Notes under the pieces: generated by a model
The model's database searches: none
The model's input: the letters and a program-made list of their open reading frames with translations, nothing else
What the model was told of the DNA's origin: nothing
Shown: in pieces, positions 1 through 62,682 of the stretch
Layout: the number at the start of each line of letters is the position of its first letter
Position numbering within the stretch: position 1 is the first letter of the stretch
Virus record (IMG/VR): IMGVR_UViG_3300045988_174823
Source of the DNA: a virus
Strand: one strand, 5' to 3'
DNA: 64,000 nucleotides
Translations under genes and position numbers: made by a program

Positions 1-238
1 ATTTCTTACAGTTATCGTCGAAAACCTTGGTAACGGCCGCGCCCGGAGCGCGATAACGAATACGCTTGCCAGCATAAAGGTTATCGGCCATAGCCTTGGC
101 CTGGGCTTCAGGGGCACGCAACGTCGAAGTGATAACGACATCAGGGTTCTTAGTGGCATCAGCCACACGGCTGATAAGATCCTTTACAGTGTCGTTGATT
201 GCGAACGCCGAAGAGTTAGCGTATGTAATATTTGCCAT
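1..238 (-). CDS. hypothetical protein, N-terminal fragment (ORF runs off the window edge)
   Basis: ATG at 238-236 (MANITYANSSAFAINDTVKDLISRVADATKNPDVV...) stays open to position 1. Same strand as, and 23-nt overlap with, the upstream gene. Absent from the ORF track because it is truncated. Confidence 0.4.
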   Translation of the reverse strand, partial: MANITYANSSAFAINDTVKDLISRVADATKNPDVVITSTLRAPEAQAKAMADNLYAGKRIRYRAPGAAVTKVFDDNCKK

Positions 239-632
239 ACGGAATTGTTATTTTAAGTGATTCTGCACTAATTGAGTTCGTGTTCATCCAATCCAGTAAG
301 TAATCCGATTTTTCGGAATTACTTAATTTTACAAAATCCTCAGGCGTGATAGCTCGGTCGAGTAAGTAATCACGAAAACCGCTTTCCATGATGGCGATGC
401 GTTGTCCTTCGGTGGCTACCTTTTGGAACATAGGTGATAACTCGTCAAGAGTTAAGGTGTTCTGGATAGCCTTACGAAATTCCCGTGCATCCAATTCGTT
501 TAACATCGGGAATTCGCCACGGAATGGTATGAGTTCCGACGGCCGTTTACGGTCGATGTATCGCGACGCTGCACCCCCTACAACCGAAGTCGTGAAGTTA
601 CGCGGTACACCATATCTTCCTTTGTCTTTCAT
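216..632 (-). CDS. hypothetical protein
   Basis: 138-aa ORF, co-directional, 3-nt gap to the upstream gene. No motif recognised. Confidence 0.5.
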   Translation of the reverse strand: MKDKGRYGVPRNFTTSVVGGAASRYIDRKRPSELIPFRGEFPMLNELDAREFRKAIQNTLTLDELSPMFQKVATEGQRIAIMESGFRDYLLDRAITPEDFVKLSNSEKSDYLLDWMNTNSISAESLKITIPYGKYYIR

Positions 633-635
633 GGC

Positions 636-3014
636 TTATTTCCTTGTGATTATCTTCGAGCGGTTGAACACAATCATAAATGAGTTGCCGCAGTAATTAC
701 CATTAGGCTGTATCATGGCGTCGTACCCTTGAAGCGCAGCATACACACCAAGGACTTCGTCGTATGAACGCGAAGATTGGTATATAGCCGCATAAATATC
801 CTTATCGGGGTCACCGACGCTATTAGAGCTAACTTTGCGCGCTGCGGCACTCTTTTCCTGATAGACCTTGAACGCTTCAGCGCGCTCCTTTTGTAAGCGA
901 TTCACCTCATCGTCAAGGTTCTTGACAGCTTCTTTCACGGCATCCTCGATTTTACCGTAGTGCTCGCGCATAATCCACCCCTTGAATTGGCGGACAGGAT
1001 AGTTGTACGGGCGCACGAAACCGTTCTTGCGCTTAATAGCATCGTTCTCGTAACGATAGCGCGAAAACACAAATCGCTCTGAAGTGTTAGGCATCTTGAT
1101 GACAAAATCGCCTGTTCCATTACCCTTTTCGGTAATGGTTCCGCCGTTAGCCGTTACCCAACCGCGGAGGTGATTATTCATAAAGTCGTCAAACTTCATA
1201 TATGACGGATTGCCGTCATCGTCAATAGCACCCCAATCGATCACTTGGTCGATTTGAAGCGGAATGTCGGTATATGCCGCGTCATCCCAATGCATAGAGG
1301 TTTTAACCCTTTTCTCGGTGTTGGAGGTGATATTGTGAAGTTCTGACGACAGCTGGTTATAAACGGCTTCGGCTTCTTGTTCTTCTTTCAGAGCCTTCTC
1401 AACTGCAGGAGATTTTCGGGCTGAAAGTTGTTGTATTTCCTTACGAGCATCTTCGACGGTGATGACTTTTGCCGAATCATCCAAAACAGCTTCAATAATA
1501 GCACCATCATCGCTTGCGTAACCGAGTGCGTTCTTATAAGAAGATGTTGATTTGTAGCCTGACGGCGTCTTATTGGCATTGGCTGAATCATTGACGTGAA
1601 AATAGATGCCTTCGCCGCAAACACCTTGTGTACCAAAAAAGCACGTGTCGTTGTACTTAAAATCGTCAGTGTAATACTCCGAATCTGTTCCGCGAGGCTG
1701 TACGCCACGGAACATATGATACTTTGATTTGGCCACTTTGGCCCAGAAAGTGTTATCATCTACAACGTCCGGACGTGCGTCGAAACCACGAGCAGCGCAA
1801 ATGTTAGATAACATTTGCCAACCTACTTGCCTATCGGTATTTGTTAATCGGTCCGTAGGGGTATTGCCATTGACACTCTTGTAAAGGGAATCCAGTTCAT
1901 CTTCCGAGAATTCGCGATACATATCCTCCTCGGACTTCAGGTTACGTGGTTTGACCTTACGATTAGCGCGCTGAATTTTAACTTGATAAATCCCTCGTAT
2001 TCGGTCCAAATCATTGAAACGTCCCTCAATGATAGCACGTATTTTAGATTTGGCGCCGAGTTTTCCAGCGTCAAAAAACGCTAAGATTTCGTCCTTACGG
2101 GCTTTCAAAGCGTCAATCTGGTCGATGAAGTCTTGCGACGTAAGATGGGCAACGATATTCGGATTGTGTTTTATCATACCATCCCAGTCGATCTTGTTGC
2201 CGAACGTCTTAGTCGAACCCTGTGCTCGGTAATTGAACAACCCGCCATTATCGACGCGGTAAACCTTGCCGGCAGCATCTACCAAACAATTGTCGTTTTG
2301 GTATATATCCCAATTGGCTAAAAAGGTGTCAACAACAAAACCCTTAGCCATAGCGGCATAATCCTTAGCCTGGGGTTCTGACACTCCGCGCATGTAGTTA
2401 GAGATAAGCGTCAAATCAGTTCCGTCGTCATACATTTCGTAATCCGGCGTGTCTAATCCAAACAAACTGTACACCTGTGCAACGTAGTATTCCGCGGCGA
2501 CGTGACCGCGGTTAGTGTTCTTTGAACTCTTAACGACAAACTCGCGACCCTTGGCGTCCTTCATCAGGACAGCTCCCGTGGAACCGCCTAATTTCTGTAC
2601 AAAGGTCAGCTGTGAAGGATCAGCCGGGAACATTTCGTTCACCTCCTTCTCCTGTTTAGCCAGTATAGCTTTGGAACGAAAAGCCCCTTTTCCAACAGGT
2701 ATTCCTTGCGGATTCTTGTAAACGCGCCAATCGTACGTCGTCTTTGCATTAGGCGTCAATGTCCAAATATACACCACGCCATCGACTACCTTTGTTTGGC
2801 CAGGCATGATAGCCTTTACAATGTCCGGGTCCTGTTTAACGCCGTGAAGGTGATCATACAACGACTTGGTTACATACAAGCTGTACTCGTAGTCATCGAC
2901 GAACTCGGAACGGGCCTTGTACGCTTCACAGGCTTTCTCCAATACGGCGTCAGAAACAGCACCCTCGGCATTACGGAGGGTGAAAATTTCCAACGCTTTT
3001 CTCAGTTCGTCCAT
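636..3014 (-). CDS. large multidomain protein with atypical kinase-like and ADP-ribosyltransferase-like regions (possible virion-packaged effector)
   Basis: 792-aa ORF. Residues ~140-270 (GGSTGAVLMKDAKGREFVVK ... ANWDIYQNDNCLVD ... YRVDNGG) resemble a PI3/4-kinase or actin-fragmin-kinase-like core. Residues ~430-515 (MFRGV ... CGEGIYFH ... STSSY ... IIEAV) resemble a PARP/Alt-like ART fold. Motif-level only. Confidence 0.45.
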   Translation of the reverse strand: MDELRKALEIFTLRNAEGAVSDAVLEKACEAYKARSEFVDDYEYSLYVTKSLYDHLHGVKQDPDIVKAIMPGQTKVVDGVVYIWTLTPNAKTTYDWRVYKNPQGIPVGKGAFRSKAILAKQEKEVNEMFPADPSQLTFVQKLGGSTGAVLMKDAKGREFVVKSSKNTNRGHVAAEYYVAQVYSLFGLDTPDYEMYDDGTDLTLISNYMRGVSEPQAKDYAAMAKGFVVDTFLANWDIYQNDNCLVDAAGKVYRVDNGGLFNYRAQGSTKTFGNKIDWDGMIKHNPNIVAHLTSQDFIDQIDALKARKDEILAFFDAGKLGAKSKIRAIIEGRFNDLDRIRGIYQVKIQRANRKVKPRNLKSEEDMYREFSEDELDSLYKSVNGNTPTDRLTNTDRQVGWQMLSNICAARGFDARPDVVDDNTFWAKVAKSKYHMFRGVQPRGTDSEYYTDDFKYNDTCFFGTQGVCGEGIYFHVNDSANANKTPSGYKSTSSYKNALGYASDDGAIIEAVLDDSAKVITVEDARKEIQQLSARKSPAVEKALKEEQEAEAVYNQLSSELHNITSNTEKRVKTSMHWDDAAYTDIPLQIDQVIDWGAIDDDGNPSYMKFDDFMNNHLRGWVTANGGTITEKGNGTGDFVIKMPNTSERFVFSRYRYENDAIKRKNGFVRPYNYPVRQFKGWIMREHYGKIEDAVKEAVKNLDDEVNRLQKERAEAFKVYQEKSAAARKVSSNSVGDPDKDIYAAIYQSSRSYDEVLGVYAALQGYDAMIQPNGNYCGNSFMIVFNRSKIITRK

Positions 3015-3017
3015 AAA

Positions 3018-4769
3018 CTATCCAAACAAAAGGGTTTCTGCTTTTTCAATCGACATATCGTCAGCGGATAACGTACCGAGTTCCGCGTTATGGGCTTTCC
3101 ACGTGTCGGGAATCATATCCTCAGCGCCAAGCGTTTTGGCGCGACGTTTAATCCAGCGGCGAGCCCGTTCAGGATTCTTTGCGTTGCCGGCCAAGCGGAT
3201 GGCATTCTTCAGGTCGGACTTGTTACGAATCGGGAATGAACCATCGGGGAGGGCCTCCTTTTTATCAGCAAGACGCTCACGTTGCTTTTCGGTAAAATCG
3301 GCCTTTTCGAGCGATTCTGCGGAGTCGAGCAGCGCTTCGGCCTTGGCTATCTCATCGGAAGTTTCGACGGGCTGGATGGCCTCGTACACGAATCCTTTCG
3401 TCAGTGCACGTACTGCGGCCCGCTCCCACTCTTTTTGCTTATCACCGATGAGATTGGTCCACTCACCGCCTATCTTGGCCATCCTGTTAGAACGGTCAGT
3501 AGAACGCTTCTCCGATAAGATGGTTCCGAAAGTACGGGTGGTAAACTTAGCAGGGTCGATTTTGTTCTTATTCTTAACGATAAGATCGAACAATTCTTTG
3601 CGTTCCTTTTTATCCTCTTCAGGGTCGTCGAGGTGCGGTTGCTGGGGAATATCCATTTCCTCGTAACGATCCTTCAGAACTTCGATCGTTTCATCGACGG
3701 TAAGATATACCTCCGACGTCAGCGTAGCGCGCGAAATGATGACCTTAGTGTCCTCGTTCTTCGAAAGGTTCACGAGGTCCTTGTTGGTCATGATAATGAT
3801 ACGGCCCGTGAATACGAAATTCGACTTGACGTCTTCCGGGTCGCCGACCACACGCTTACCTGAAGCGGCGGTGGCTTTCTTCATGATGGAAGCCAAGTCG
3901 GCGCGAGTGATAACGGAGTCGGTATCATCGAACAGAAGAATCTTACCGTTGTGTGCTTTCAGTACACCCAGCAGCTGCTTCTTGGAGTTGATGTCGCCGA
4001 GCTCAACGTAGTCATAGTCGCCGTCGCCTGGAGAATCGGTTTCAGCGTCGAATGGACGTTTATTGAGCAGTTCGGCAATTTTCTTGAAACCGTACGATTT
4101 ACCGATACCTGCGCCGCCAGCCGAGATCATGAACCGATGTTCCTTGTTATCGAGGAACTCAAGATACTGACGGTTAAGATCATACATAACCTCAACAGGC
4201 GGTTCGTAATCGGGATCCTTTTTCTTCATCGCATAGACGAAGCGGTCGTAAGCGATACGGTCTTGACGGCTCTGAAGTTTATTAAACTTTTTCTGAATGC
4301 GCGGGTCTTCGGGGTTAAGAAACCAGTCCTCGACGATTTCACCATCGTCGTTTCCACCCTCGCCGTCGTTAATGTCCACTTGAGCTCCGGTACTGGTAGG
4401 CGCAACAGGATCCTGTTTGGCAGTCATCTTAAGCAACGTAGATAACGTTCCGCTGGTATCCACCTGCGACATATCGGCATTACGGGATTTCAGTTCGTTG
4501 TAAGCGATATGTCGCAGCTGCGCATTGCCCTTGGGGTTGTTGACAACTTTCAAAAGGTTATCATCGCTGGTCTTCTTGGCCCACGCTTCAAGACTCGTCG
4601 CAGGACCCGAATCGCCCGATTCTTTACCAGTATCGGCGCTGGGCTTGGGTTTAGCGTTCTTATCGACACGCCAGTTGAACTTTCCAGGCTTGTACTCCGT
4701 CCACACCCACGGCTGGGTGGGGTGATGGTCGCCGACGTTGTGCTTTGCTTTTTGAATAATATCTGACAT
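3018..4769 (-). CDS. P-loop NTPase
   Basis: 583-aa ORF with Walker A ISAGGAGIGKSYGF and Walker B KILLFDDTD. C-terminal ALPDGSFPIRNKSDLKNAIRLAG motif. ATG confirmed at 4769. Confidence 0.6.
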   Translation of the reverse strand: MSDIIQKAKHNVGDHHPTQPWVWTEYKPGKFNWRVDKNAKPKPSADTGKESGDSGPATSLEAWAKKTSDDNLLKVVNNPKGNAQLRHIAYNELKSRNADMSQVDTSGTLSTLLKMTAKQDPVAPTSTGAQVDINDGEGGNDDGEIVEDWFLNPEDPRIQKKFNKLQSRQDRIAYDRFVYAMKKKDPDYEPPVEVMYDLNRQYLEFLDNKEHRFMISAGGAGIGKSYGFKKIAELLNKRPFDAETDSPGDGDYDYVELGDINSKKQLLGVLKAHNGKILLFDDTDSVITRADLASIMKKATAASGKRVVGDPEDVKSNFVFTGRIIIMTNKDLVNLSKNEDTKVIISRATLTSEVYLTVDETIEVLKDRYEEMDIPQQPHLDDPEEDKKERKELFDLIVKNKNKIDPAKFTTRTFGTILSEKRSTDRSNRMAKIGGEWTNLIGDKQKEWERAAVRALTKGFVYEAIQPVETSDEIAKAEALLDSAESLEKADFTEKQRERLADKKEALPDGSFPIRNKSDLKNAIRLAGNAKNPERARRWIKRRAKTLGAEDMIPDTWKAHNAELGTLSADDMSIEKAETLLFG

Positions 4770-4780
4770 ACGTTGTGCAG

Positions 4781-4804
4781 TTTTCCAAATAAATACTTGG
4801 AAAA
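4781..4804. repeat. inverted repeat TTTTCCAA-N8-TTGGAAAA between two genes
   Basis: 8-bp perfect arms at 4781-4788 and 4797-4804, 12 nt upstream of the ATG at 4769 and abutting the stop at 4805. It shares the TTGGAAAA word with the promoter-like repeat family. Confidence 0.5.
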
Positions 4805-5608
4805 TTACACTTCTACAGCGTCAAAGTCAATATCAAATTTCTTATATACAATGCGCAACTCGGGCACACCATTGATCGGCTTCTTCTTTTCATCAACACG
4901 AGCGTTAAGCGGCCAACGCTTCAAGATGATATCATGCGCACGTTGAACGCGCTCACGACGTTCGTACACATCCTGGAGACCGCCACCTTGTGTAGCTTCC
5001 TTGTTCATCTTACTCTGGAGCAAGAACCGTACGAATCGCGCATACACGATGCCGAGATACATACATTTTAACGAATAGTCGATATCACATTTCAACTCCA
5101 ACCGCTCATCAAAGTCCAACTCTAACGTGCGAAGACCCTTGAACACGATAAGGTGTGGAATACCGCCGTATTTGAAACGCGGACTAACGTCGATGCAATT
5201 CCAATCAAAAGCACTTTTGCCCATGGTGCCATATTCGAAGTCGGTTTTCATCACCTCTCGGTCGAATTCGTTGAAGAATTCAGCCAACTCTTCATGGGTT
5301 TTCAACGACAGTCCGCATTTGGCTTCACCGTCAATTGAGTAGAAGAAGTTGGCGATATCGTCATCCATCACCACAACGGGATACCCCTCGCGCAAGTAGG
5401 TATTCTTGCAGAAATTGACTACGTAGCTGTAGCCACGATTCGAGGCTGGAAGCACAATGAGGCGTTCGCGCTCATGCCCGGCTTCAACATATTTTTCAAC
5501 ATCCTCTTTTTCTACCACGATGTGGTAATCCACGCCGCCCTTTTTCAACAATCGAGTCGTGACGCATTTAGGGCGGTTTTTAGACACGACAAAGAATTGA
5601 CAGTTCAT
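4805..5608 (-). CDS. GT-A-like glycosyltransferase candidate (DxD type), paralog-like to 23500-24315
   Basis: FFVVSKNRP strand, then VVVMDDDIANFF (DxD) about 85 aa later, and a C-terminal GGGLQDVY...RWP motif shared with ORF 23500-24315. The ATG at 5608 is preferred over the TTG at 5638 (3 nt after the upstream stop). Confidence 0.45.
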   Translation of the reverse strand: MNCQFFVVSKNRPKCVTTRLLKKGGVDYHIVVEKEDVEKYVEAGHERERLIVLPASNRGYSYVVNFCKNTYLREGYPVVVMDDDIANFFYSIDGEAKCGLSLKTHEELAEFFNEFDREVMKTDFEYGTMGKSAFDWNCIDVSPRFKYGGIPHLIVFKGLRTLELDFDERLELKCDIDYSLKCMYLGIVYARFVRFLLQSKMNKEATQGGGLQDVYERRERVQRAHDIILKRWPLNARVDEKKKPINGVPELRIVYKKFDIDFDAVEV

Positions 5609-5610
5609 AC

Positions 5611-6291
5611 TCAAAATGGTAAGTCGCCCTCGTACCAAATTTCCTCAGGCGGGTTCTGTTCTATAAAACGTTGATAATTGTCCAGTGTACTTTCTAACGA
5701 TGGATAAAACCTCATGAACAACTCCCACTTAACGTCAAACATATCATCACACGATACGCGGCGTTTCATCAGTAGGCTTTCGCTATTATAGCACTGCACG
5801 CAGACCTGACGACGGCCTCGTAGTACGTACGAATAGGGAAAGTCGCGATAGTATTCCGCACCAGACGCTGTATTATACACCACATCATGGATAAACTGGT
5901 TGAACGGGTGTCCTGCGCCGAGAGGTGCCAGTAACGTATAACCGGGATTGCGGTGCATAAACTTCCGCAAATGATCGCGAAGCGCTTGTTCGGCGAAATT
6001 AAGGCCGTCATTCCCGAATTTGGCGCGTAAGTACGTATAGACGCTCTCATAATTACAGTCCTTGGAATGGGCCTGAAAATCGCTACAACGGACATTTTCT
6101 AACTCCAGGTCCAGACAATCCATGGCTATACCCAGAAAATTGTACAGAAGCCGCTGCTCTGAAACGCGCTTTGGGTCGCTATCTACAGTAAGCACCCGAA
6201 CGTCATATTCGGGTGCTACTAAAACGTGACAAGCACTCATCAGGAGATCACCCGCGTGTGGCTCGACACAGAGGTATTTTATTTTTCCCAT
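5611..6291 (-). CDS. LmbE/PIG-L-family deacetylase-like protein
   Basis: N-terminal VEPHAGDLLMSA (compare AHPDD, with His/Asp spacing conserved) and a later GAGHPFNQFIHD (compare HPDH). Overlaps the upstream gene by 13 nt. Confidence 0.4.
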   Translation of the reverse strand: MGKIKYLCVEPHAGDLLMSACHVLVAPEYDVRVLTVDSDPKRVSEQRLLYNFLGIAMDCLDLELENVRCSDFQAHSKDCNYESVYTYLRAKFGNDGLNFAEQALRDHLRKFMHRNPGYTLLAPLGAGHPFNQFIHDVVYNTASGAEYYRDFPYSYVLRGRRQVCVQCYNSESLLMKRRVSCDDMFDVKWELFMRFYPSLESTLDNYQRFIEQNPPEEIWYEGDLPF

Positions 6292-7238
6292 GGCCGTTTG
6301 TATATCTTCTCGACGCAGGGGCCGTCCTTCGATACGTCCTCAGCCATACGGCGAATTTCTGGCGTGATAGGCGGGAGCGTTTTCTTACCCATCTTATCAG
6401 GCAGGAAACCGACACGGACGCTGACATGTGTACACCCCTGACACGGACGGAACCGACGATCGTTGTTGTACAGCATCACGCGGGCAGCATGAAAGCGCGG
6501 ATGGTTCCAGAGGTCTTCGATAGGCATGTCGTGGATGTTGGCGATAGGGTACTCGCCGCGAAAGTCGTCGCAGCACAAGCACACCTGGCCGTTCCAACGC
6601 ACATCCAGTTCGCGGAACGGAAAAGTACATCGTTTGTTGTTGAACGAGTCGTCGAGCGGGAACGCTGCGCCACAGTGGTTAGCCAGACGACGCGTCATCT
6701 TGTTGGTATCGTCTTCGGCGATAGGCGGCAACAGACAGATACGGCGGCCCTGCTTGGGGTAGTAGTACGGAACGCCCGGTTCCAGCGTAACGACGTTGTA
6801 TTTCTCGATGTCGATTTTCTCGACGAAATTCCAGTCACCCTTAGCCGTATAGCAGTCCACCAGAATATCATTCATGCCGGCTTCAAAAAGACGGTCTAAA
6901 TATTCCGACGTATCCTTGGCGTGGTTCATACCGTACCCGTTGCTGTACATATGAAATACGGCTTTGGGCAGGTGTTTACGGAACGTAGCCACGATGTCGA
7001 TGAATGCGGGGTTGAGCGTCGGTTCGCCGTGCATAGCGAATACGAACTTACATTTCCACCCTACGCGGGCTACCTCTGAAGCGATACGCTCGGCGGTTTC
7101 AACGGTCATGAAATTCCACGGCTTAGTGCCTTTTTCGCGCATGCCGTGGAGACCGCAAAACGAACAACCCAGATTACACCCCTCCGTCGGTTCAATCTGC
7201 ATAGTGAACGGAGGGTCTTGTACGATTTTGTTTTTCAT
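6279..7238 (-). CDS. radical SAM enzyme with C-terminal Cys-rich (SPASM/twitch-like) domain
   Basis: EGCNLGCSFCG (CxxxCxxC) and HGEPTLNP. C-terminal CLCCDDFRG...RPCQGC. The ATG shares one nt with the stop of the MuF-like gene. Confidence 0.8.
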   Translation of the reverse strand: MKNKIVQDPPFTMQIEPTEGCNLGCSFCGLHGMREKGTKPWNFMTVETAERIASEVARVGWKCKFVFAMHGEPTLNPAFIDIVATFRKHLPKAVFHMYSNGYGMNHAKDTSEYLDRLFEAGMNDILVDCYTAKGDWNFVEKIDIEKYNVVTLEPGVPYYYPKQGRRICLLPPIAEDDTNKMTRRLANHCGAAFPLDDSFNNKRCTFPFRELDVRWNGQVCLCCDDFRGEYPIANIHDMPIEDLWNHPRFHAARVMLYNNDRRFRPCQGCTHVSVRVGFLPDKMGKKTLPPITPEIRRMAEDVSKDGPCVEKIYKRPWEK

Positions 7239-9268
7239 TATTTGGTAACTTTAATGTTAAGTTTCACGTTCTTTAACTTTGGGTTCTTAAACTGGCGTTT
7301 GATAGGCTTGATGAAAGCGCGGGTTGCAGGGTCCCAATCAAAGCCATCAGGAACGTGGTTGACTGTACACCGGCAATTGTGAACCACAATTCCATCGGCA
7401 ATGTAGCTTTCATCTTCGGCAACTGAAATATTGTACAATTTAGTGTACTTTTTAGATCTCGGAACTTGTTTAATGTATAAAACCTTCACACCACGCGAAA
7501 CTATTTGCCCCCGGTGATTTTTGAACAGCCGTTTCAGGCGGTTGTAAACCATATCGCCGTGGTTGTTTATCTCATCTTCAGTGAAGCGGAATGTCTCATA
7601 GCCGTAACACTCCAAAATGTCCTTATCGCGGTTGGAATCGTATTCCGGATCGTTGTGCCATTTTTCGCCGTCAGCCTCCAAAACAATCTTGAGATCGGGA
7701 ATCAGTAAATCGGGGAAATACCCCACAACATCGTTGCGGAACTTTCCGTTATTTTTCAAGAACACCCCTGTCTTAGCTTCAACTCCTAACGACTTACACA
7801 GATACTCCAACTTGCGCTCGATGAACGACCGTTTCTTACCATTGGTAGAATTAGTCTTCTTCAGCGCCTCAGCCATCCAAGGATACTCACCTTGATATTT
7901 ATCTTCGATAGCTTTTCTTGCTCTGGTGGTAAGTTTCTGACGATCGACAGCACTCATATTGGCATAACGAACAGCCATCTCTTCTTTGACTTTCTTACTC
8001 ATGTAAGAACGGAACTCTGTGTCTTGCCATTGCGAGACGCACTGTTCGCTCCGGTGACAAGCTATACACAGCCCCCTCTCCAAAAGAGTATCGCTGGCTG
8101 AAACGTATATTGGCATAAACGAACCGCATTTTTCACAACAAACACCTTCGATTGTTATCAAATCGCCTGTTTTCAATGAAGCAGCCTCTCGCCATTCACC
8201 GTTTGAAAGAATTGGATGATTTCCTGTTATACGACGCACCTTCCGTACCTTTTTACGCCCTAAAAGGTTTTTGACGGCATAATAGATGTCGTACAGGGGT
8301 TCATCCTTATGATCGTGAATAATCACTTCCGTAACAGGCCTAAACCTCCCTCGGTGAGTCAAAACCATATCCCCTTTCTTTAGAGAAGATATGTTTCTCC
8401 ATCCGTTGATGGTGTACACCTTTGTAGCCGGATTATTGAAACAATAGGGGTGCGTTGGGTCAATCGTAGGGAGCCATTCTGCCACCTTACGACCGATGTT
8501 GTTACCGTTAGCGATAAGGTCTGCCAAACGGAACAGTTTCGGTTTCGAGGTAGGGTCTTCGGGGTCTTCTAAGTACAACTCCCGGCACTTAGCGCACGCG
8601 CCTGGATAGACGTCGAAATACACTTTGGCGTCAGGACCGTGTTGCTTGAAAATACTTTCGGCACGGCCCACGTTGTAGGCTTCGTGTAGAAGGTAGTACG
8701 CAATACGCAGCCAATCGCGTCCCCAGTCTTGGGTAAGGTTTCCGAGTTCGCTGGCTATATACCGGGCTCCCTTACGGAGTTGAACAGCTTGAATGGCCTT
8801 GTCTTTTATTTGTTGACGTATTTCTGATTGTTGACGGAAATTCGATTTGAGTACAGCGTTGCGTGTTCCGGTGACGATACGATTACCAAGCGACGTGATG
8901 TCGGTATAGGCACGATTCTTGAGGTAGTTGAGCGCGTTTTCTTCCTGTTCGGTAAGCGGAACAAAGTTTCCCGATTTCAAGAACTGGAGAAACTGCTTGT
9001 AATTCATCTTCTTGGCGCGAGTGTCGCCAATTGCTTCGGCCAGTATTCCAAACAAAAAGGCGTGTTCGATGATGCCCTTTGAGTTCTTGTACTTATCGAC
9101 GTTGACCCCTGAAGCTACCAAGATATCAATTTCAGACTGCGTGAGGTAGTCCAATCCGACGTGCTTGGCAATAAAGAGATATTGCCAACGCCGGAGAATA
9201 CCGACCATGTCGTCTATTTGACGGTTGTTGAAAATCATAACTTTTCGACGTCTTTTCGGGGAATCCAT
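7238..9268 (-). CDS. MuF/SPP1 gp7-like head morphogenesis protein interrupted by an intein
   Basis: Removing residues 276-631 joins THPY to CRCTV. This restores the HPxCRC motif typical of Mu F/SPP1 gp7 family proteins. Confidence 0.7.
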   Translation of the reverse strand: MDSPKRRRKVMIFNNRQIDDMVGILRRWQYLFIAKHVGLDYLTQSEIDILVASGVNVDKYKNSKGIIEHAFLFGILAEAIGDTRAKKMNYKQFLQFLKSGNFVPLTEQEENALNYLKNRAYTDITSLGNRIVTGTRNAVLKSNFRQQSEIRQQIKDKAIQAVQLRKGARYIASELGNLTQDWGRDWLRIAYYLLHEAYNVGRAESIFKQHGPDAKVYFDVYPGACAKCRELYLEDPEDPTSKPKLFRLADLIANGNNIGRKVAEWLPTIDPTHPYCFNNPATKVYTINGWRNISSLKKGDMVLTHRGRFRPVTEVIIHDHKDEPLYDIYYAVKNLLGRKKVRKVRRITGNHPILSNGEWREAASLKTGDLITIEGVCCEKCGSFMPIYVSASDTLLERGLCIACHRSEQCVSQWQDTEFRSYMSKKVKEEMAVRYANMSAVDRQKLTTRARKAIEDKYQGEYPWMAEALKKTNSTNGKKRSFIERKLEYLCKSLGVEAKTGVFLKNNGKFRNDVVGYFPDLLIPDLKIVLEADGEKWHNDPEYDSNRDKDILECYGYETFRFTEDEINNHGDMVYNRLKRLFKNHRGQIVSRGVKVLYIKQVPRSKKYTKLYNISVAEDESYIADGIVVHNCRCTVNHVPDGFDWDPATRAFIKPIKRQFKNPKLKNVKLNIKVTK
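7376..8443 (-). mobile_element. intein (356 aa) with Zn-finger-like Cys cluster and DUF559/Vsr-like PD-(D/E)XK nuclease domain
   Basis: Starts with Cys (tgt, 8443-8441) and ends VVHN (aat, 7378-7376), followed by +1 Cys. Internal CCEKCG...CIACH cluster and PDLLIPDLKIVLEADGEKWHNDPEYDSNRDKDILECYGYETFRF. Confidence 0.7.
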
Positions 9269-9759
9269 TTCCCAGTGCCACGTGGTGCGCCGCTGTACGA
9301 AGGTTTACCTGTAAGTTGAATTAACTGTATTTCCGTGTCACCTTCCTTGATGTTTTTCACTGAATACACGCTGCGAACTCTTCCGGCGTAACGGACCTTA
9401 TCGCCAATTTTCACTTTTTCGTAGTGCTTGACGTATTTCTCCACCTTTTGATTTTCATAAAAATCGTTACGTGCAACGCCGTCGTCGCCAATTACAAGTG
9501 CTTCGGTGCCATCGCCAACCGTGAGCGTGTGAATATACGTATCGTCTTGACGACATTCAGAGTTTCGGCGTTGACTGGGATCGGGAAACTTTGCGCGTCC
9601 CGTGTAAAGTGCGCCGACGCGGCCTAACTTTCGGTTCTTAGACGTGTTGGCGTATCGTCCTGTTCTCGAACGCGCCTTTTCAATGAACCCCGCCACCACC
9701 TGCTCACGCATTGTATTGTGGTGTTCGTGTATTGCTTTTGTGATCGCGTCTATTTCCAT
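9235..9759 (-). CDS. hypothetical protein sharing an N-terminal motif with ORF 10437-12224
   Basis: 174-aa ORF. GFIEKARSRTGRYANTSKNRKLGRVGALYTG parallels IEKARHGVYADNAQNRRLQRVGQEYG in the 595-aa protein. Confidence 0.5.
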   Translation of the reverse strand: MEIDAITKAIHEHHNTMREQVVAGFIEKARSRTGRYANTSKNRKLGRVGALYTGRAKFPDPSQRRNSECRQDDTYIHTLTVGDGTEALVIGDDGVARNDFYENQKVEKYVKHYEKVKIGDKVRYAGRVRSVYSVKNIKEGDTEIQLIQLTGKPSYSGAPRGTGKWIPRKDVEKL

Positions 9760-10265
9760 AATCTGACCCGTGAAATTTGACTGCGTTTGACAACCATGTG
9801 TAGGCCGTTGTTTAACTCGATTTCCGCACCTTCATCGCCGGACACCAGAACCTTCCCGAACCTGTAGTAGAAACCTGCCTCGGAGTTTCCAGTCTTTGCG
9901 ATAACGGTATTATTCTGGGATAGTTCGGCGAGGTCTTTAATCTTGATGGCGTCATCGTCAAACATCTTCTTCCAAAACCACTCAACATCGGGGCAAAGAC
10001 GGATCTCTTCGTCGGGCTGTAACGATACTGTGATCGATGTGCCGGAGGGGTGCATCTTCACTTCACACCTACCATCACTAATGCGTGATAGCGTGCCGAC
10101 GTTATACTTCATCTGCCCTCTTTCATCCCTCATACGAGTAACGACCCATACCGGGTATGGTGGTTCTTTCTCCAGCGCGCTATTGACGGCAATCACTGTG
10201 CCGATATTCCAAACCTGTTCAATCTTCCTTGGCGGTATGGCCCAAATTGCCTTTCTTTGTTTCAT
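9750..10265 (-). CDS. hypothetical protein
   Basis: 171-aa ORF with an ATG start, overlapping both neighbours. Confidence 0.5.
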   Translation of the reverse strand: MKQRKAIWAIPPRKIEQVWNIGTVIAVNSALEKEPPYPVWVVTRMRDERGQMKYNVGTLSRISDGRCEVKMHPSGTSITVSLQPDEEIRLCPDVEWFWKKMFDDDAIKIKDLAELSQNNTVIAKTGNSEAGFYYRFGKVLVSGDEGAEIELNNGLHMVVKRSQISRVRLWK

Positions 10266-10437
10266 CCTCGTTTAGTTCTTTAATCGCCGCAGCCGTAGCG
10301 TCGGCGATGTACTTCAAGACATCACCGAGCGCCGCGGCATTATTGGCGTTCCATTCCCGGATAAACCGATTTTCGTACTGAGTAACGGTGGGGAATGGCG
10401 ACGGAAGAAAGTGGGTATGTTTGGCGTTGTAGGGCAT
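10219..10437 (-). CDS. hypothetical protein
   Basis: 72-aa ORF. Its ATG overlaps the stop of the upstream gene. Confidence 0.4.
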   Translation of the reverse strand: MPYNAKHTHFLPSPFPTVTQYENRFIREWNANNAAALGDVLKYIADATAAAIKELNEDETKKGNLGHTAKED

Positions 10438-12224: not shown

Positions 12225-12248
12225 GACTTTATAGGTTCATAAGTTTCA

Positions 12249-12293
12249 TTTCCAATACAAAGGTAGTTAAATTTCTCCAAACTGCCAAGAGCG
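12249..12293 (-). promoter_or_regulatory. promoter-like repeat, copy P1 (divergent)
   Basis: Plus strand reads TTTCCAATACAAAGGTAGTTAAATTTCTCCAAACTGCCAAGAGCG. The sense strand has TACCTTTG (12265-12258), which matches TAnnTTTG, 34 nt upstream of the ATG at 12224. Confidence 0.45.
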
Positions 12294-12296
12294 TTG

Positions 12297-17599: not shown

Positions 17600-17923
17600 T
17601 CAACACAACAGTTTCAAAATGTCGTTCCGCGCTGTTTTACGAATTATCAATGCCTGATGAAGAAGGTCGCCCCATACCGCTATCTGGTAACCATTCCACG
17701 TGTAATAATCCGTTTGATCGTCGTACGAGCCATTCCATTCACCGTCGTGGCGTATGTCAGCGACGAGGCGTTTAAAACGCGCTGTTTCTTCGGTGGTAAG
17801 GGGTGATATGAAAGTGCCGACGACTACTAATCGTGCGGCACTTGTGGAAAGATCATCGGCCAAAATCTGAAAGTCGATGCCCATAAAATCGCCCGTTTCC
17901 AACGGCGTGTGAAAGGTTATCAT
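17600..17923 (-). CDS. hypothetical protein
   Basis: 107-aa ORF, 4-nt overlap with the upstream gene. Confidence 0.5.
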   Translation of the reverse strand: MITFHTPLETGDFMGIDFQILADDLSTSAARLVVVGTFISPLTTEETARFKRLVADIRHDGEWNGSYDDQTDYYTWNGYQIAVWGDLLHQALIIRKTARNDILKLLC

Positions 17924-18930
17924 TTGCCTATCAATTTACAAGCTCTTGGTTCAAATGTAGAGCGTTGTTTACCTTCACCAATCTTCATTTTCCAGTACTT
18001 TTGATACTCACACAGCCACATTTCCACCTGGTGAAGTGATATCTCGCCCGACGGCGTGACGTAATACCCCGATTCAAGTTTGTGCCAGTGTAGGTACGGA
18101 AAATCGCCAAACGAAGATAACGCTGCCTGTGCCTCATCACGCAGGCGATATATACCGTCAATTTGACGCTTCAACGATGGGAACACCAACCGCAGCCCTA
18201 TGGACGCACCAGGCCCCACATTGGTATAGTCATCCTGGGTAAAGTGCATGAAACGGCGATAGGTATAGCGCGGTATGTAGGTGAAGTCTTGGTAGAATTC
18301 GTGAGCGATAAATGTCGCCGACGAAGGTAACTCCTGAAGGAACTTGATAATCTGCCCAGGATCGGTAGCCGTCAACACCGTCCGCATCAGTTTACCTAAC
18401 TTACGATGAAGCGTAGGCACAACCAAATGCGTGTAGCAGTAGTCGCGCGGTTTTCCAGGTGTGGCCATCGAATTGATGAGGTAGGCCGTGGTGTAGGGGT
18501 TGTTGCCTGTGGCACGGTACGACGTTATCATTTCCGCAAAGCGGTCCTCGTCGTATTGGTTATAATCCGGAATGCCCGCTCCCCAACCGTACTTTTCACG
18601 AGCATATTCAAACGTTTCAGGGTTGTTAAAATACCGGAACACCATCATCTTCCAAACCAGATTCGTCAGCGTTAATTCGTCATCCAGCAAGATATTACGT
18701 ATCTGCCACTGCGAATTACGATCCAGTTCACGATACACATTGGTGAATTTGTAATCGCGTAATATAGGATCATCAGTCCACGGACGCGGTTTCTGATCCA
18801 GGAACCGTCGCTTCCATATCATTTGGCGCTCAAACATCGTGCGGAAGAACTCGTGATAGTGTTCCTCGCTGACGTCAAGTGCGGCGTCAGGTAATTTATC
18901 AGCCCAAGGGTAATGATCAAATTTCGCCAT
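17920..18930 (-). CDS. aGPT-Pplase / 5-hmdU-DNA-kinase helical-domain-like protein (DNA base hypermodification candidate)
   Basis: 336-aa all-alpha-looking ORF. WKRRFLDQKPRPWTDDPILRDYKFTNVYRELDRNSQW matches my recollection of the conserved N-terminal motif of these families. Not verifiable here. Confidence 0.4.
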   Translation of the reverse strand: MAKFDHYPWADKLPDAALDVSEEHYHEFFRTMFERQMIWKRRFLDQKPRPWTDDPILRDYKFTNVYRELDRNSQWQIRNILLDDELTLTNLVWKMMVFRYFNNPETFEYAREKYGWGAGIPDYNQYDEDRFAEMITSYRATGNNPYTTAYLINSMATPGKPRDYCYTHLVVPTLHRKLGKLMRTVLTATDPGQIIKFLQELPSSATFIAHEFYQDFTYIPRYTYRRFMHFTQDDYTNVGPGASIGLRLVFPSLKRQIDGIYRLRDEAQAALSSFGDFPYLHWHKLESGYYVTPSGEISLHQVEMWLCEYQKYWKMKIGEGKQRSTFEPRACKLIGK

Positions 18931-22978: not shown

Positions 22979-23503
22979 CTATTTAATCGTTGAACCGAAC
23001 CCTCCGGCGTCGCGCATCGAAGGCGTCAACGTGTCGGTTTCCTCCACTTCAATATACGGCGCAGGGACGATGACCAACTGGGCTACAACGTCTCCTGCCT
23101 TAAATTCCTTGGTGCTCAGATTCACGTTTTGAGGCTTCATCCCCGCAACCTCACCGAAGACGTTGGAAAGTAATCCACAAACGCTCTTGAAGAACCTGTG
23201 AACCAGCGTAGGCAAATGCCACGTCTTCTTGTAACGAGCACGTATCGTGCCGCGGTAGCCAGGGTCGATAACCCCTGGAGCATTACACATCACCAGGTCC
23301 ATTTTTGAACAACGCGAATTCGGGACCAGCAACCCGCAATACCCCCTGGGAATTTCGACGGCGATGCCGGTATCGTATTCGATGTAATCTTCAGTTTCCT
23401 TTACGGTTACAGCCACGAGGTCCAGGCCGTTATCCTCACCACCAGGATGAGCATACGTCGGCAGTACGGCTTCAGGGTGTACTTTCTTGAATTTTACGGT
23501 CAT
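22979..23503 (-). CDS. dut: dUTPase (trimeric type) with a ~30-aa insertion between motifs III and IV
   Basis: Motifs NGLDLVAV, VPNSRCSK, GVIDPGYRGTI, GDVVAQLV and RDAGGFGSTIK. Confidence 0.85.
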   Translation of the reverse strand: MTVKFKKVHPEAVLPTYAHPGGEDNGLDLVAVTVKETEDYIEYDTGIAVEIPRGYCGLLVPNSRCSKMDLVMCNAPGVIDPGYRGTIRARYKKTWHLPTLVHRFFKSVCGLLSNVFGEVAGMKPQNVNLSTKEFKAGDVVAQLVIVPAPYIEVEETDTLTPSMRDAGGFGSTIK

Positions 23504-24315
23504 TTCTTGTATCCTTTTAAGTGTAATTTGACTTCTATCATTTCACGATCCTTCATCTCGCCACCCCAGTTGGTACACTTCTTGGTGCGGAGTGTGATGT
23601 ATTCAGGGAACGTTTCCCTTAAACGTTGTGACTCGGCGTTGGAGTTCTCGATAGTTCGGTACACAGAACAACCGCCAGCAGCGTTGGCTCCTGTCATTTT
23701 ATCGAACGAATACTGATACGAAACCACGTTATCCAACCCAGCACGACGCAGGCCACAAGCCAAGGCAAAATCCTCTTTTATAGGCCAATCACTGAACCTA
23801 ACAGGCTGGCTCAGATATTGCTCAATATTCAGCCCCCAAATGGAGAAGAACCGCCCATTAATTTGTACGTCGTGCGTCTTATCGCGGTTGAATGGCCTAT
23901 ACGAAAGAGCCGCCACGGCGTAGGTGTCCAACTGCTCCGCTACCCAGTCAAACATCATCGAATAGATGCATTCCTGGGCCTCGACGGTGAAATTGTCGTT
24001 GTTTACCACTACAGGGGTCTTGGCATCGTCTAAACGCAGTGAGAAAGACACGTTATCGTCTAAGAAAAAGACTCCGCCAAATCCCCTATCAGCGGCCTCT
24101 ACAACAATGTAGTCTCGTATGTCGCCTACACCGCGACATACCGTACTGTATTCCTCGATGGCGGCAACCTTACCGCCCCAGTTGCGTTGGTGAGCGGCCA
24201 ATTCGCCAGGGTGACAGAATACCGTTACGCGGCGACGGGCCTCAGGCGTTAGGCGCTGGAGGGTTTTCTGGCGGTCAATACGACCACGGGTGAATAGTGC
24301 TATCAGAGTTTTCAT
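23500..24315 (-). CDS. GT-A-like glycosyltransferase candidate, paralog-like to 4805-5608
   Basis: IALFTRGRIDR strand, VFFLDDNVSF (DxD-like), and a C-terminal AAGGCSVYRT...TFPEY motif shared with ORF 4805-5608. ATGA overlap with dut. Confidence 0.45.
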   Translation of the reverse strand: MKTLIALFTRGRIDRQKTLQRLTPEARRRVTVFCHPGELAAHQRNWGGKVAAIEEYSTVCRGVGDIRDYIVVEAADRGFGGVFFLDDNVSFSLRLDDAKTPVVVNNDNFTVEAQECIYSMMFDWVAEQLDTYAVAALSYRPFNRDKTHDVQINGRFFSIWGLNIEQYLSQPVRFSDWPIKEDFALACGLRRAGLDNVVSYQYSFDKMTGANAAGGCSVYRTIENSNAESQRLRETFPEYITLRTKKCTNWGGEMKDREMIEVKLHLKGYKK

Positions 24316-30098: not shown

Positions 30099-30136
30099 TG
30101 TACGATAATTTTGATTGTTGATAAATATGGGGTTTG

Positions 30137-31526: not shown

Positions 31527-31539
31527 CGTGTTAAGGATT

Positions 31540-31954: not shown

Positions 31955-31977
31955 AACGTTGGCGATGTCTTACGCTG

Positions 31978-32074: not shown

Positions 32075-32084
32075 AGGCCCCAAA

Positions 32085-32680: not shown

Positions 32681-32705
32681 TCTACAGACGCAAATAGCCT
32701 ACGTG

Positions 32706-33974: not shown

Positions 33975-33992
33975 AATTCGTTGTATTAGGGG

Positions 33993-61464: not shown

Positions 61465-62682
61465 TTACAGGAGTTTATTGATTTCTGCGTTAGAAAACCT
61501 TGCCGCGAAGAAATTGCGAGCCAACATCAGGTAGTCCCACTTTTCTTCAACGGATACGGTCCCTGTGATACGGTCCATCAGCACAAAGCACGACTTCAGC
61601 AACGAATCACGGTCATCCTTATAGGCACCAATATTTCGCTTGTAGAAGACGTACACCTTCAACATCTGGTAAACTACCCAGAAATAGGTTGATTTCTCAA
61701 ATACGTAGTTCTCAAACCCGGCCTCGTCTTCCAAGATATTGCCTTTTGCGTATCGCACCGCCAAACGATTTATCATCTCTTCCATAAAGGCCGTTATTTC
61801 ACACAGGCGGTTTACCGGAACCTCCGATTCGAACTTAAAGTCCATCATATACGACATCGCTCCCTCGTAATACAAGCTGCGGCGCGTATTATTGGACACG
61901 AAAAGTTCGCTCATCTGCTCGGCGATATTATTCCATTCGTAGATATGGAGCGACTGCGAGTTGTGAGTCTGAACACCTAACTCTACCCCCAAGCAGAGGG
62001 ACATTACCTCCGTCAGGAACGAGAACTGAAAGATGTTCGTTGGTAAGCCCCAGTGGAGATCATTCGAACGGTTCTGGACCGTGGTAACGAGTTTCCCATC
62101 GCGGATTTTCAACATCACCATATCGTTACACGGCAAGTCCTTCGATTTCACGCCGAGGTCAAACTTAGGATTCCAAATCGACATCACAACCTGACGTGTT
62201 TCCGGGTCAGTGCTCAGCAGGCGAATGGCTTCCTTCACCTGATCCAGGCCCGGGTCCATCGACTCACCCTCGGACGAAATACCCCAATGACGCAAACGCC
62301 AGCCGTAGGGAGCGTGGAACGTAACGCCATTATCGGAAAAATCGACCATCTTGCCGTTGAAGATCTTCAGGAACTCGACGTCCTTACGGCCCGTAACTAT
62401 CCACATAGCTTCAGCCAGCAGGAAGAAGATGTTGATGTTGCGGGCATAGCCGCCTACACAGCGGCGATACGGGTTGTTGATTATTGTCTTGACATCGAGC
62501 AGTTCGCGTACCTTACCAGCACGAGAATCCTGAAGCGGGAGCGTCGTCATCATCGTGCGGTTGATATACGGATACACCTCGGCGAACGAACCGCGCGGAT
62601 CGGTAAATACCACACGCCGCCGATAGTCAAACTCAAAACGGCTAATGCCTGTTTCGGTCTGGGAAATTGATTCTTGCTTCAT
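61465..62682 (-). CDS. thymidylate synthase-family enzyme (ThyA or dUMP hydroxymethylase) with ~130-aa C-terminal extension
   Basis: Motifs TRQVVMSIWNPKFDL, DLPCNDMVMLKI, VQNRSNDLHWGLPTNIFQFSFL and SLHIYE. Confidence 0.8.
   Translation of the reverse strand: MKQESISQTETGISRFEFDYRRRVVFTDPRGSFAEVYPYINRTMMTTLPLQDSRAGKVRELLDVKTIINNPYRRCVGGYARNINIFFLLAEAMWIVTGRKDVEFLKIFNGKMVDFSDNGVTFHAPYGWRLRHWGISSEGESMDPGLDQVKEAIRLLSTDPETRQVVMSIWNPKFDLGVKSKDLPCNDMVMLKIRDGKLVTTVQNRSNDLHWGLPTNIFQFSFLTEVMSLCLGVELGVQTHNSQSLHIYEWNNIAEQMSELFVSNNTRRSLYYEGAMSYMMDFKFESEVPVNRLCEITAFMEEMINRLAVRYAKGNILEDEAGFENYVFEKSTYFWVVYQMLKVYVFYKRNIGAYKDDRDSLLKSCFVLMDRITGTVSVEEKWDYLMLARNFFAARFSNAEINKLL

Follow-up and report, generated by a model that had tools for sequence, protein, structure and literature searches.

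Organization of the module

The DNA analyzed here is a 64,000-nucleotide stretch (the window) of IMG/VR virus record IMGVR_UViG_3300045988_174823, that is, 64 kb of a roughly 98-kb genome. It carries three consecutive enzyme genes on the minus strand, which an earlier note had singled out from the letters as a radical SAM/SPASM enzyme, an LmbE-like deacetylase, and a GT-A-like glycosyltransferase. All three open reading frames (ORFs) exist as it described them. The first (6279..7238, minus strand) encodes a BtrN-like radical S-adenosylmethionine enzyme of 319 aa with a Twitch/SPASM domain (rSAM). The second (5611..6291, minus strand; 226 aa) encodes a middle protein of the LmbE/PIG-L family with a degenerate catalytic site. 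The third (4805..5608, minus strand; 267 aa counted from the ATG) encodes TAGT1, a GT-A-like glycosyltransferase (GT) of the TAGT family. The gene directly upstream (7238..9268, minus strand; 676 aa) encodes a MuF-like head protein with a 356-aa intein and belongs to the context of the enzyme module.

The junctions were read directly from the sequence. Between the MuF-like gene and rSAM, TAATG (7240-7236) combines the stop codon TAA (7240-7238) with the start codon ATG (7238-7236), a 1-nt overlap. rSAM and the LmbE-like gene share ATGGGAAAAATAA at 6291-6279, a 13-nt overlap in which the rSAM stop codon occupies 6281-6279 and the LmbE-like ATG begins at 6291. The LmbE-like gene and TAGT1 meet in TGA-GT-ATG (5613-5606), with the TGA at 5613-5611, a 2-nt spacer, and the ATG at 5608. 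Both overlaps agree with the earlier note; the gap it gave as 3 nt is truly 2 nt, 3 being the difference between the coordinates. The mechanical ORF list starts TAGT1 at a TTG (5638), whereas both its homology and its Pfam match set in at the ATG (5608). TAGT1 ends at 4805, followed by a 35-nt spacer and the ATG of the next gene at 4769. The overlapping and near-abutting junctions support one tightly coupled operon, as had been suggested. Promoter- or terminator-like sites beyond shuffle expectation were absent from positions 1-12500, which is consistent with co-transcription of the trio without proving it.

The same genes stand in the same order in about 25 IMG/VR contigs of about 100 kb. Pairwise dN/dS values are 0.03 for rSAM, 0.15 for the LmbE-like middle gene, and 0.02 for TAGT1. 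All three genes are thus under purifying selection and are expressed, selected genes rather than chance ORFs. Hydrophobic segments of transmembrane strength are absent from all three proteins.

The ATGGGAAAAATAA overlap is retained even in relatives whose rSAM is just 54-62% identical. Within it, rSAM ends in W-E-K-stop, the LmbE-like protein starts with M-G-K, and a run of five A lies directly before the stop codon. It is pure speculation that a -1 slip at this run would give an rSAM::LmbE fusion resembling P0015, a natural fusion described below. The conservation of the overlap may merely reflect the conserved WEK C-terminus of rSAM.

The radical SAM enzyme

The rSAM protein matches Pfam Radical_SAM (PF04055; 1.4e-15, 58.3 bits against a cut-off of 29.5) and SPASM (PF13186; 2.6e-12, 47.3 bits). 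Its CX3CX2C motif is formed by C21, C25, and C28, which are invariant in 33 homologues, as are C204, C222, C223, C266, and C269. The motif and a PF04055 score above the gathering score place the protein in the radical SAM superfamily. It lacks the full seven-Cys SPASM motif (CX9-15GX4C...CX2CX5CX3C...C), as the CX5CX3C part is absent. Four auxiliary-cluster cysteines align with the ligands of the single auxiliary cluster of BtrN; hence, the enzyme is of the Twitch type. BtrN itself is a Twitch-domain 2-deoxy-scyllo-inosamine dehydrogenase. The earlier call of a SPASM-domain radical SAM enzyme therefore stands, while the typical peptide-modifying SPASM enzyme gives way to a BtrN-type, single-cluster Twitch enzyme.

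Among solved structures in the PDB, BtrN is the best relative, with 6.9e-9 for the single sequence and 2.2e-19 for the family profile, and the profile match comprises two aligned stretches, the core and the auxiliary-cluster domain. An AlphaFold2 (AF2) model of rSAM (pLDDT 80, pTM 0.85) gave the same answer: its top Foldseek match is BtrN (4m7t; E 3.5e-12, TM-score 0.78 on BtrN, 268 aligned columns), so that the similarity extends over the whole length. anSME follows far below (1e-5 vs 2e-19 by profile; TM-score 0.38 vs 0.78). Other sugar-acting radical SAM enzymes come next in the Foldseek list, namely SpeY, DesII (deaminase/dehydrogenase), BlsE (decarboxylase/dehydratase), and AbmM; the list also holds the epimerase EpeE. 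Judged by sequence and model, the nearest relatives of rSAM are sugar and cyclitol enzymes, not peptide-acting ones. Peptide modification of the anSME or RiPP type was dropped as the leading idea on the match scores and the gene context.

Compared with the BtrN/SpeY Twitch dehydrogenases, the enzyme shares its best sequence and structure match and the four aligned auxiliary-cluster cysteines. It differs from BtrN in its low identity (about 18%), in the extra invariant Cys223, and in a C-terminal extension of about 45 aa. It also lies in a phage DNA-modification cluster, would act on a DNA-linked sugar, and has no aminotransferase partner.

An isomerase of the M6 gp53 type was considered and rejected. 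gp53 resembles spore photoproduct lyase (SPL) and has its motif at residue 125, and tblastn gave no match in M6 or SP10. Against 50,697 phage records, tblastn of rSAM returned only weak matches (21-23% identity) in Campylobacter phages, tblastn of TAGT1 returned nothing, and megablast of positions 4000-10000 returned nothing. Thus, we found no cultured relative with the module. The window has a single rSAM gene and a single LmbE-like gene.

The LmbE-like middle protein

The window protein has no direct Pfam or PHROG match, PIG-L included. An exhaustive profile search defined its family with 89 representatives, and PIG-L (PF02585) is matched by 22 of 66 aligned members. Because the family profile matches the GlcNAc-pseudoaglycone deacetylases Dbv21 (1.5e-13) and Orf2* (1.3e-10) over the whole domain, the LmbE-like label in the earlier note was right at the family level. 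The family consensus reads PH(S/P)DD...GHPxH, with the pentad H-D-D-H-H, and the HMMER alignment puts these motifs on PHLDD and HPDH of Dbv21.

In MshB and Orf2*, the PHxDD and GHPxH motifs supply the Zn ligands together with the general base and a catalytic His. Canonical relatives keep both motifs, as do the known LmbE/PIG-L de-N-acetylases (MshB, BshB, Dbv21, Orf2*), whereas the window protein does not. It reads PHAGD...GHPFN, with H12, G14, D15, H128, and N131 at the pentad positions. Gly14 thus stands for the general-base Asp and Asn131 for one Zn-ligand His, the third Zn ligand. Among unique sequences from the loci, H-D-D-H-H is intact in 28 of 54. In the clade of the window, all 25 full-length sequences have x-G-D-x-N, some with Q12 and some with Q/N128; one further, truncated sequence of the clade lies outside this count. 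In the same clade, dN/dS of the LmbE-like gene is 5-7-fold above that of its neighbours.

The degenerate pentad and the raised dN/dS indicate that the protein is retained, yet no canonical Zn amidase here. Deacetylation in this phage, as the earlier note had it, is accordingly doubtful. By analogy, we think it more likely that the protein assists rSAM as a repurposed or catalytically inactive partner; it might bind the substrate, for instance, or act as a scaffold. An AF2 model of it (9-sequence alignment, pLDDT 66) gave generic Rossmann folds in Foldseek (TM-score about 0.3) and was not used.

The glycosyltransferases

TAGT1 matches Pfam TAGT (PF20691, 'TET-associated glycosyltransferase'; 1.4e-13, 51.7 bits against a cut-off of 27.5) and phrog_842, 'beta-glucosyl-HMC-alpha-glucosyltransferase' (2.6e-17). 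In the motif alignment, it keeps the GT-A motifs R...DDD...DxDY as SKNRP, MDDDI, and CDIDY. The GT-A-like glycosyltransferase of the earlier note is thus borne out and sharpened to TAGT, a family of phage DNA-base GTs. TAGT and HMUDK, the kinase discussed below, were reportedly defined by Iyer et al. in NAR in 2013. A second member, TAGT2 (23500..24315, minus strand; Pfam TAGT 1e-13, phrog_842 1.1e-27), lies between the large terminase gene, which it directly follows, and a dUTPase-like gene downstream of it.

For phage DNA GTs, the GT-A motifs have been defined as R...DDD...EDY/F (bioRxiv 10.1101/2023.12.21.572611). Phage GT-A-like enzymes place hexoses (Hex) and N-acetylhexosamines (HexNAc) on 5-hydroxymethylcytosine (5hmC) and resemble the base-J glucosyltransferase; together with GT-B-like enzymes, and partnered by epimerases and additional GTs, they make diverse 5hmC glycans (bioRxiv 10.1101/2023.12.21.572611). 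Since TAGT-type phage enzymes install Hex and HexNAc on 5hmC, an N-acetyl-sugar substrate is plausible for the module. The characterized or assigned TAGT members work on 5hmC or glucosyl-5hmC in DNA, and those of T-even-like phages put a second glucose on glucosyl-5hmC (PMC13390438).

With these TAGT/GT-A-like systems (PF20691; the T6-type beta-glucosyl-HMC alpha-glucosyltransferase; TET- and thymidylate synthase (ThyS)-associated enzymes), TAGT1 and TAGT2 share a score above the family cut-off, the motifs R...DDD...(E/D)D(Y/F), a hydroxymethylase partner of the thymidylate synthase (TS) family, and an expected sugar on a 5-hydroxymethyl-pyrimidine in DNA. Unlike them, the window has no TET/5mYOX and no C5-methyltransferase, its predicted base is 5-hydroxymethyluracil (5hmU), and TAGT1 is coupled to an rSAM and an LmbE-family protein, neither of which that work mentions (bioRxiv 10.1101/2023.12.21.572611). 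The TET/JBP family is absent from the Pfam matches of 67 further window proteins, and the partner of the window TAGTs is instead a TS-family hydroxymethylase. Such an association is common in GT-A contigs (bioRxiv 10.1101/2023.12.21.572611).

In many relatives, among them L012-L015, L001, L029, and L038, a protein of 482-495 aa takes the place of TAGT1. Its assignment as a GT-B enzyme was not confirmed: Glycos_transf_1 matches at E 0.0086, below the threshold, and the PDB gave no match even by profile. Its 'NGFIIEAMxxGxYPV' stretch recalls, in our reading, the EX7E region of GT4 enzymes.

Predicted hydroxymethyluracil machinery in the window

The earlier note had looked at the trio and had missed a 5-hydroxymethyldeoxyuridine (5-hmdU) DNA kinase, a dUMP-hydroxymethylase homologue, a dUTPase-like protein, and TAGT2 elsewhere in the window, which are decisive here. 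The kinase (5-HMUDK; 17920..18930, minus strand; Pfam HMUDK_hel 4.5e-52) is encoded immediately upstream of the portal gene (15799-17574). Its C-terminal half also matches a small-terminase PHROG weakly (1.4e-5). The TS homologue (61465..62682, minus strand; 405 aa; Pfam Thymidylat_synt 2.5e-23) has its best phage matches in the dUMP hydroxymethylases of SPO1 (gp29), SP8, and Goe9/10, at 41-48% identity. At the pyrimidine-discriminating position it has Asn, like SPO1 gp29. In TS and dCMP hydroxymethylases, a change from Asn to Asp at this position shifts the specificity from dUMP to dCMP. The window enzyme is predicted to make 5-hmdUMP. The dUTPase/dCTP-deaminase-like protein (22979..23503, minus strand; Pfam dUTPase 1.2e-11, DCD 6.3e-6) probably supplies dUMP and keeps out dUTP. 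As the window encodes the gp29-like TS homologue, HMUDK, and the dUTPase-like protein, the phage DNA is predicted to contain 5hmU-derived bases.

Thymidine hypermodification in ViI, M6, SP10, and PhiW-14 combines 5-HMUDK with aGPT-Pplase and tailoring enzymes (PMC5889632, PMC8989533). The window resembles these clusters in its dUMP-hydroxymethylase homologue, its 5-HMUDK, the expected post-replicative modification of 5hmU, and a tailoring rSAM. It differs from them in that its rSAM is BtrN-like (Twitch) and not an SPL-like isomerase as M6 gp53, and in that it is predicted to append a sugar, where those clusters add an amino acid or polyamine. It also differs in that no aGPT-Pplase was matched among the window proteins at E <= 1e-3 and no pyridoxal phosphate (PLP) enzyme was detected in the 64 kb. 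HMUDK could carry out a parallel modification of other 5hmU residues or take part in a phosphate-bridged variant. Tailoring in thymidine hypermodification is known from radical SAM isomerases, PLP decarboxylases, flavin lyases, and acetyltransferases (PMC13458397).

DNA bases that derive from thymine and bear a sugar are also known, namely base J (made by a JBP hydroxylase and JGT) and those of SP-15, YerA41, and Carin-5. Base J, unlike the base predicted here, is made by oxidizing T in DNA. In Carin-5, thymidines bear sugars, and one gene block combines GTs with a putative GlcNAc (polysaccharide) deacetylase; that enzyme is annotated as a polysaccharide deacetylase, not as LmbE-type, and no rSAM is reported there (PMC12686479). 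Neither a BtrN-like rSAM nor an LmbE-family protein is described in any of the studies compared here (bioRxiv 10.1101/2023.12.21.572611, PMC13390438, PMC5889632, PMC8989533, PMC13458397, PMC12686479). The earlier note knew of no phage system with this composition, and we likewise found no description of a phage DNA-modification system with a GT, a BtrN-like rSAM, and an LmbE protein in the searchable literature, which did not cover the founding work of Iyer et al. 2013.

The module in related phages

With the rSAM profile we retrieved 80 IMG/VR loci; local HMMs were run over them, and they fell into 42 clusters at 90% identity. The rSAM family itself has 280 protein clusters at E < 1e-5 and is far larger than the LmbE-like family. 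This neighbourhood analysis, which the earlier note had proposed, shows, within 2.5 kb of rSAM, a TAGT or the candidate GT of 482 aa in 35 of the 42 clusters, within 1.5 kb an LmbE-like gene in 19, and within the 10-kb flanks HMUDK or a TS homologue in 21.

The lineage of about 100 kb has the order portal ... MuF – rSAM – LmbE-like – GT – 583-aa protein – 792-aa protein. The placement of the trio in the head-morphogenesis block was hence correct: the portal gene lies upstream, and a relative has its major capsid gene about 6 kb downstream. We also accept the MuF-like identity of the upstream gene, whose 311-aa orthologue in a relative gives a weak match to Phage_Mu_F below the threshold. In this lineage the module is invariably followed by the 583-aa and 792-aa proteins, which do not adjoin it in others.

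Such a constant position, after MuF and before two large conserved proteins and the capsid gene, is what one would expect if the operon glycosylated or matured a head protein (MuF, a scaffold, the capsid, or an ejected protein), and SPASM-domain rSAMs often modify peptides, with anSME the second-best PDB match. We regard this as very unlikely. Elsewhere the rSAM–TAGT pair is found in replication modules beside TS homologues or HMUDK, with no structural genes near, TAGT is a DNA-GT family, and BtrN scores far above anSME. Moreover, HMUDK and TAGT2 are interleaved with the packaging genes of the window, so that little about the target can be read from where the trio stands in the head block.

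In other lineages the neighbours belong to replication and nucleotide metabolism (NrdD, helicases, polymerases, exonucleases, DCD). TAGT, rSAM, HMUDK, and the TS homologue are contiguous in this order in L122 and L123, each gene being Pfam-confirmed in L122. The order is HMUDK – TAGT – rSAM – TS in L117, rSAM – TAGT – HMUDK – TS in L119, and HMUDK – TAGT – LmbE – rSAM – rSAM – TAGT ... TS in L118. A lineage of about 50 kb with PolA (12 loci) has TAGT – rSAM – small P-loop kinase – TS homologue; in L043 and L094-L105 of this lineage, the P-loop kinase, of about 140 aa, stands in place of HMUDK. The TS homologue is of the Asp type in all 12 of these loci, which have no HMUDK within 10 kb, and of the Asn type in all HMUDK loci and in the window.

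The Asp-type residue predicts a 5hmC-based version of the sugar-tailoring system for the PolA lineage, and the TAGT–rSAM pair seems to serve both 5hmU and 5hmC pathways. As the pair occurs with both types of TS, the hydroxymethyl-linked sugar, and not the base, is likely to be the common substrate.

The close linkage to HMUDK raises another option, in which HMUDK phosphorylates 5hmU in DNA and TAGT, rSAM, or both use the resulting 5-phosphomethyl-dU, taking the place of aGPT-Pplase. The product could be, for instance, a phosphodiester-linked sugar of the SP-15/Carin-5 type or a radical C-C linkage. We consider this route improbable. HMUDK directly adjoins TAGT–rSAM in L117, L119, L122, L123, and L086, and no aGPT-Pplase was detected in the window. 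There are precedents as well, namely the phosphate-bridged sugars on thymine derivatives in Carin-5 and SP-15 (PMC12686479) and the C-C-linked thymidine modification by an rSAM in M6 (PMC8989533). Against it, the PolA-lineage loci have TAGT–rSAM and an Asp-type TS with no HMUDK nearby, and the pair is therefore independent of HMUDK. The window rSAM is also unrelated to the SPL-like M6 gp53, and the missing Pplase applies to the 64 kb, with about 34 kb of the genome outside.

Fusions occur naturally between rSAM and LmbE (P0015, 534 aa) and between LmbE and TAGT (P0022, 509 aa). A DNA N6/N4 methyltransferase is inserted in the module of L001, L106, and L109, and FkbM-type Methyltransf_21 genes are present in L031, L033, and L112. 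In L033, rSAM is missing, and the LmbE-like and TAGT genes are each present twice. In one relative, an NAD-dependent sugar epimerase/dehydratase is encoded 3.7 kb from rSAM.

Among 185,579 bacterial and archaeal species genomes, rSAM had a single match, at 99% identity, on a 10-kb contig of a human-gut Bacteroidales metagenome-assembled genome (MAG; L126). Shine-Dalgarno-like sequences are absent before the window genes examined. Both observations suggest a Bacteroidales host, and the host is probably a gut member of this order. The portal protein has its nearest cultured relatives in Chryseobacterium phage MA9V-3 (41% identity), in SPO1-like Bacillus phages (about 40%), and in the Bacteroides DAC phages (37%).

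In the btr cluster, BtrM, BtrD, and BtrN of 2-deoxystreptamine aminoglycoside biosynthesis form a triad that is mirrored by the GT, LmbE deacetylase, and BtrN-like rSAM. The parallel, with the BtrN match itself, could point to an aminoglycoside-like metabolite, or else the enzymes could act on a host surface glycan in serotype conversion or superinfection exclusion. A host-directed or small-molecule role of this kind is most unlikely. The proteins have no membrane segments and no Gtr-type partners, the window has no detectable 2-deoxy-scyllo-inosose (2-DOI) synthase or aminotransferase, the family is essentially absent from the prokaryotic genomes except for the one MAG contig, and TS and HMUDK are consistently linked to it across lineages. 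The contexts across lineages, the soluble proteins, and the near absence from prokaryotic genomes thus disfavour both a virion protein and a host-directed role. The earlier note had listed DNA with a glycosylated hydroxymethyl base, a virion protein, and a host glycan as targets; the protein family and the neighbourhoods strongly favour the first, and the other two are unlikely.

A proposed pathway and its alternatives

Our favoured reading, which we hold with moderate confidence, is that the trio serves DNA hypermodification and not virion maturation: hydroxymethyl-pyrimidines in DNA would be glycosylated after replication, and radical chemistry would tailor the sugar. The gene families, their coupling and co-conservation, the fusions, and the neighbourhoods are observed; we infer the DNA-linked sugar as substrate, its identity, the order of the steps, and the rSAM chemistry as follows. 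In step one, 5-hmdUMP would replace dTMP before replication through the TS homologue and the dUTPase-like protein, as suggested by homology to SPO1 gp29. In step two, after replication, TAGT1 and TAGT2 would move a hexose or N-acetylhexosamine from a host nucleoside diphosphate (NDP)-sugar onto 5hmU in DNA; the product would be analogous to glucosyl- or HexNAc-5hmC and to base J. Homology and gene context suggest these two steps. In step three, the BtrN-like rSAM would abstract a hydrogen from the DNA-linked sugar, most likely with oxidation of a secondary alcohol to the ketone, in the manner of BtrN and SpeY. In step four, the LmbE partner would de-N-acetylate HexNAc and expose an amine in canonical relatives; in this phage, the LmbE-like protein would be a non-catalytic or repurposed partner of rSAM. 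Sugar oxidation and deacetylation are put forward purely by analogy with characterized enzymes. The purpose would be to shield virion DNA from restriction and other nucleases.

The order of tailoring and transfer could also be reversed. The rSAM, with a canonical LmbE protein where present, would then act on a free nucleotide-sugar or sugar phosphate, and TAGT would put the keto- or amino-sugar on 5hmU DNA afterwards. We think this unlikely, yet it ranks first among the alternatives, ahead of the use of a phosphorylated 5hmU, the modification of a virion protein, and the host-directed or small-molecule role, in this order. BtrN, SpeY, DesII, and BlsE, the nearest structures, all use small soluble sugar or cyclitol substrates, one relative encodes the sugar epimerase/dehydratase near rSAM, and donor-modifying epimerases are frequent in phage DNA-glycosylation clusters (bioRxiv 10.1101/2023.12.21.572611). 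The fusions of LmbE to GT and to rSAM suit channelling on one macromolecular substrate equally well, and no nucleotidyltransferase or sugar kinase was detected beside the module in the window. LmbE-family enzymes generally act on glycosides (GlcNAc-inositol, GlcNAc-pseudoaglycone) and not on NDP-sugars, which also speaks against tailoring of a free donor.

Several points weigh against the pathway with a DNA-linked sugar that we prefer. Substrate and product are deduced wholly from homology and context. TAGT1 is without a BLAST-level relative in the 50,697 phage records; therefore, acceptor and donor are not transferable from a characterized enzyme. The alternative 482-aa protein is a candidate GT, given its sub-threshold Glycos_transf_1 match. 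The deacetylation step is unsupported in the window, where the general-base Asp and a Zn-ligand His are lost. HMUDK normally feeds substitution of the aGPT-Pplase type, and as no Pplase was detected in the 64 kb, its tie to the GT and rSAM steps is unexplained. Finally, MuF and the capsid gene flank the module in this lineage.

Other features of the window

The Pfam scans of the 67 further proteins also identified a YfbR-like HD nucleotidase (56314-56961). The large terminase gene (24335-27052, minus strand; phrog_38 4e-53) bears an intein, which carries a LAGLIDADG homing endonuclease (Hom_end_hint, Hom_end, LAGLIDADG_3). The MuF-like product matches Hint, Intein_splicing, and DUF559 in Pfam; its intein (residues 276-631; Hint and a DUF559/Vsr-like endonuclease) sits exactly in the HPY|CRC motif. 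L005 and similar relatives have an intein-less MuF-like allele of 320 aa that reads ...DPTHPYCRCS...

The TS homologue adjoins a split DNA polymerase III alpha on the minus strand, with one part at 59760-61463 (PHP and positions 5-103 of the NTPase profile) and the other at 56977-59079 (positions 98-260 of that profile, finger, HHH). An ORF between the parts (59272-59772) is 65% identical over 86 aa to a NUMOD3-containing ORF (49045-49803, minus strand). The arrangement probably reflects the insertion of a homing endonuclease, in the form either of an intron or of a split gene.

A ferritin/rubrerythrin-like protein (22380-22976, minus strand) is encoded beside the dUTPase-like gene and close to TAGT2. 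Ferritin-like proteins occur near rSAM again in three loci of other lineages and might be di-iron oxidases or iron suppliers to the Fe-S enzyme.

Downstream of TAGT1, the 583-aa protein is a P-loop protein (3018-4769, minus strand) whose N-terminal stretch of about 110 aa resembles that of a 595-aa acidic scaffold-like protein (10437-12224; 31% identity, E 9e-7). The first 50 aa or so of a 174-aa protein (9235-9759, minus strand) also resemble the N-terminus of the scaffold-like protein. The stretch common to the three proteins may be a capsid-targeting segment. Positions 30000-34000 are the sole part of the window with positive GC skew and plus-strand ORFs (31008-32459), the rest being minus-strand; it may mark the boundary of a module or be transcribed as a small divergent unit.

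Significance

Known DNA glycosylation relies on GTs and donor-modifying epimerases (bioRxiv 10.1101/2023.12.21.572611). The module of a GT and a BtrN-like rSAM, with or without an LmbE protein, is most likely a fresh variant of phage DNA glycosyl hypermodification. It is common, being present in at least three phage lineages of differing genome organization, many of them from gut metagenomes. More tentatively, it may represent an undescribed, widespread branch in which a BtrN-like rSAM reworks the sugar on DNA 5hmU, or on 5hmC in the sister lineage, into a keto-, amino-, or otherwise rearranged sugar. A DNA-linked glycan would then be the target of a radical enzyme for the first time, and the LmbE partners would deacetylate in some phages and have become non-catalytic subunits in others.

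If our proposal is true, the module, tied to hydroxymethyl-pyrimidine synthesis, would bring a chemically new class of DNA modification, a second and unrelated role of radical SAM chemistry on DNA, and an anti-restriction camouflage that has not yet been described. DNA hypermodifications set the sensitivity of phages to restriction, CRISPR, and type IV systems, hinder sequencing, and yield enzymes for DNA labelling. The swapping of GTs and the gain of methyltransferases among relatives fit an arms race, and the exchange of GT, methyltransferase, and LmbE-variant cassettes would amount to a natural experiment in diversifying DNA camouflage.

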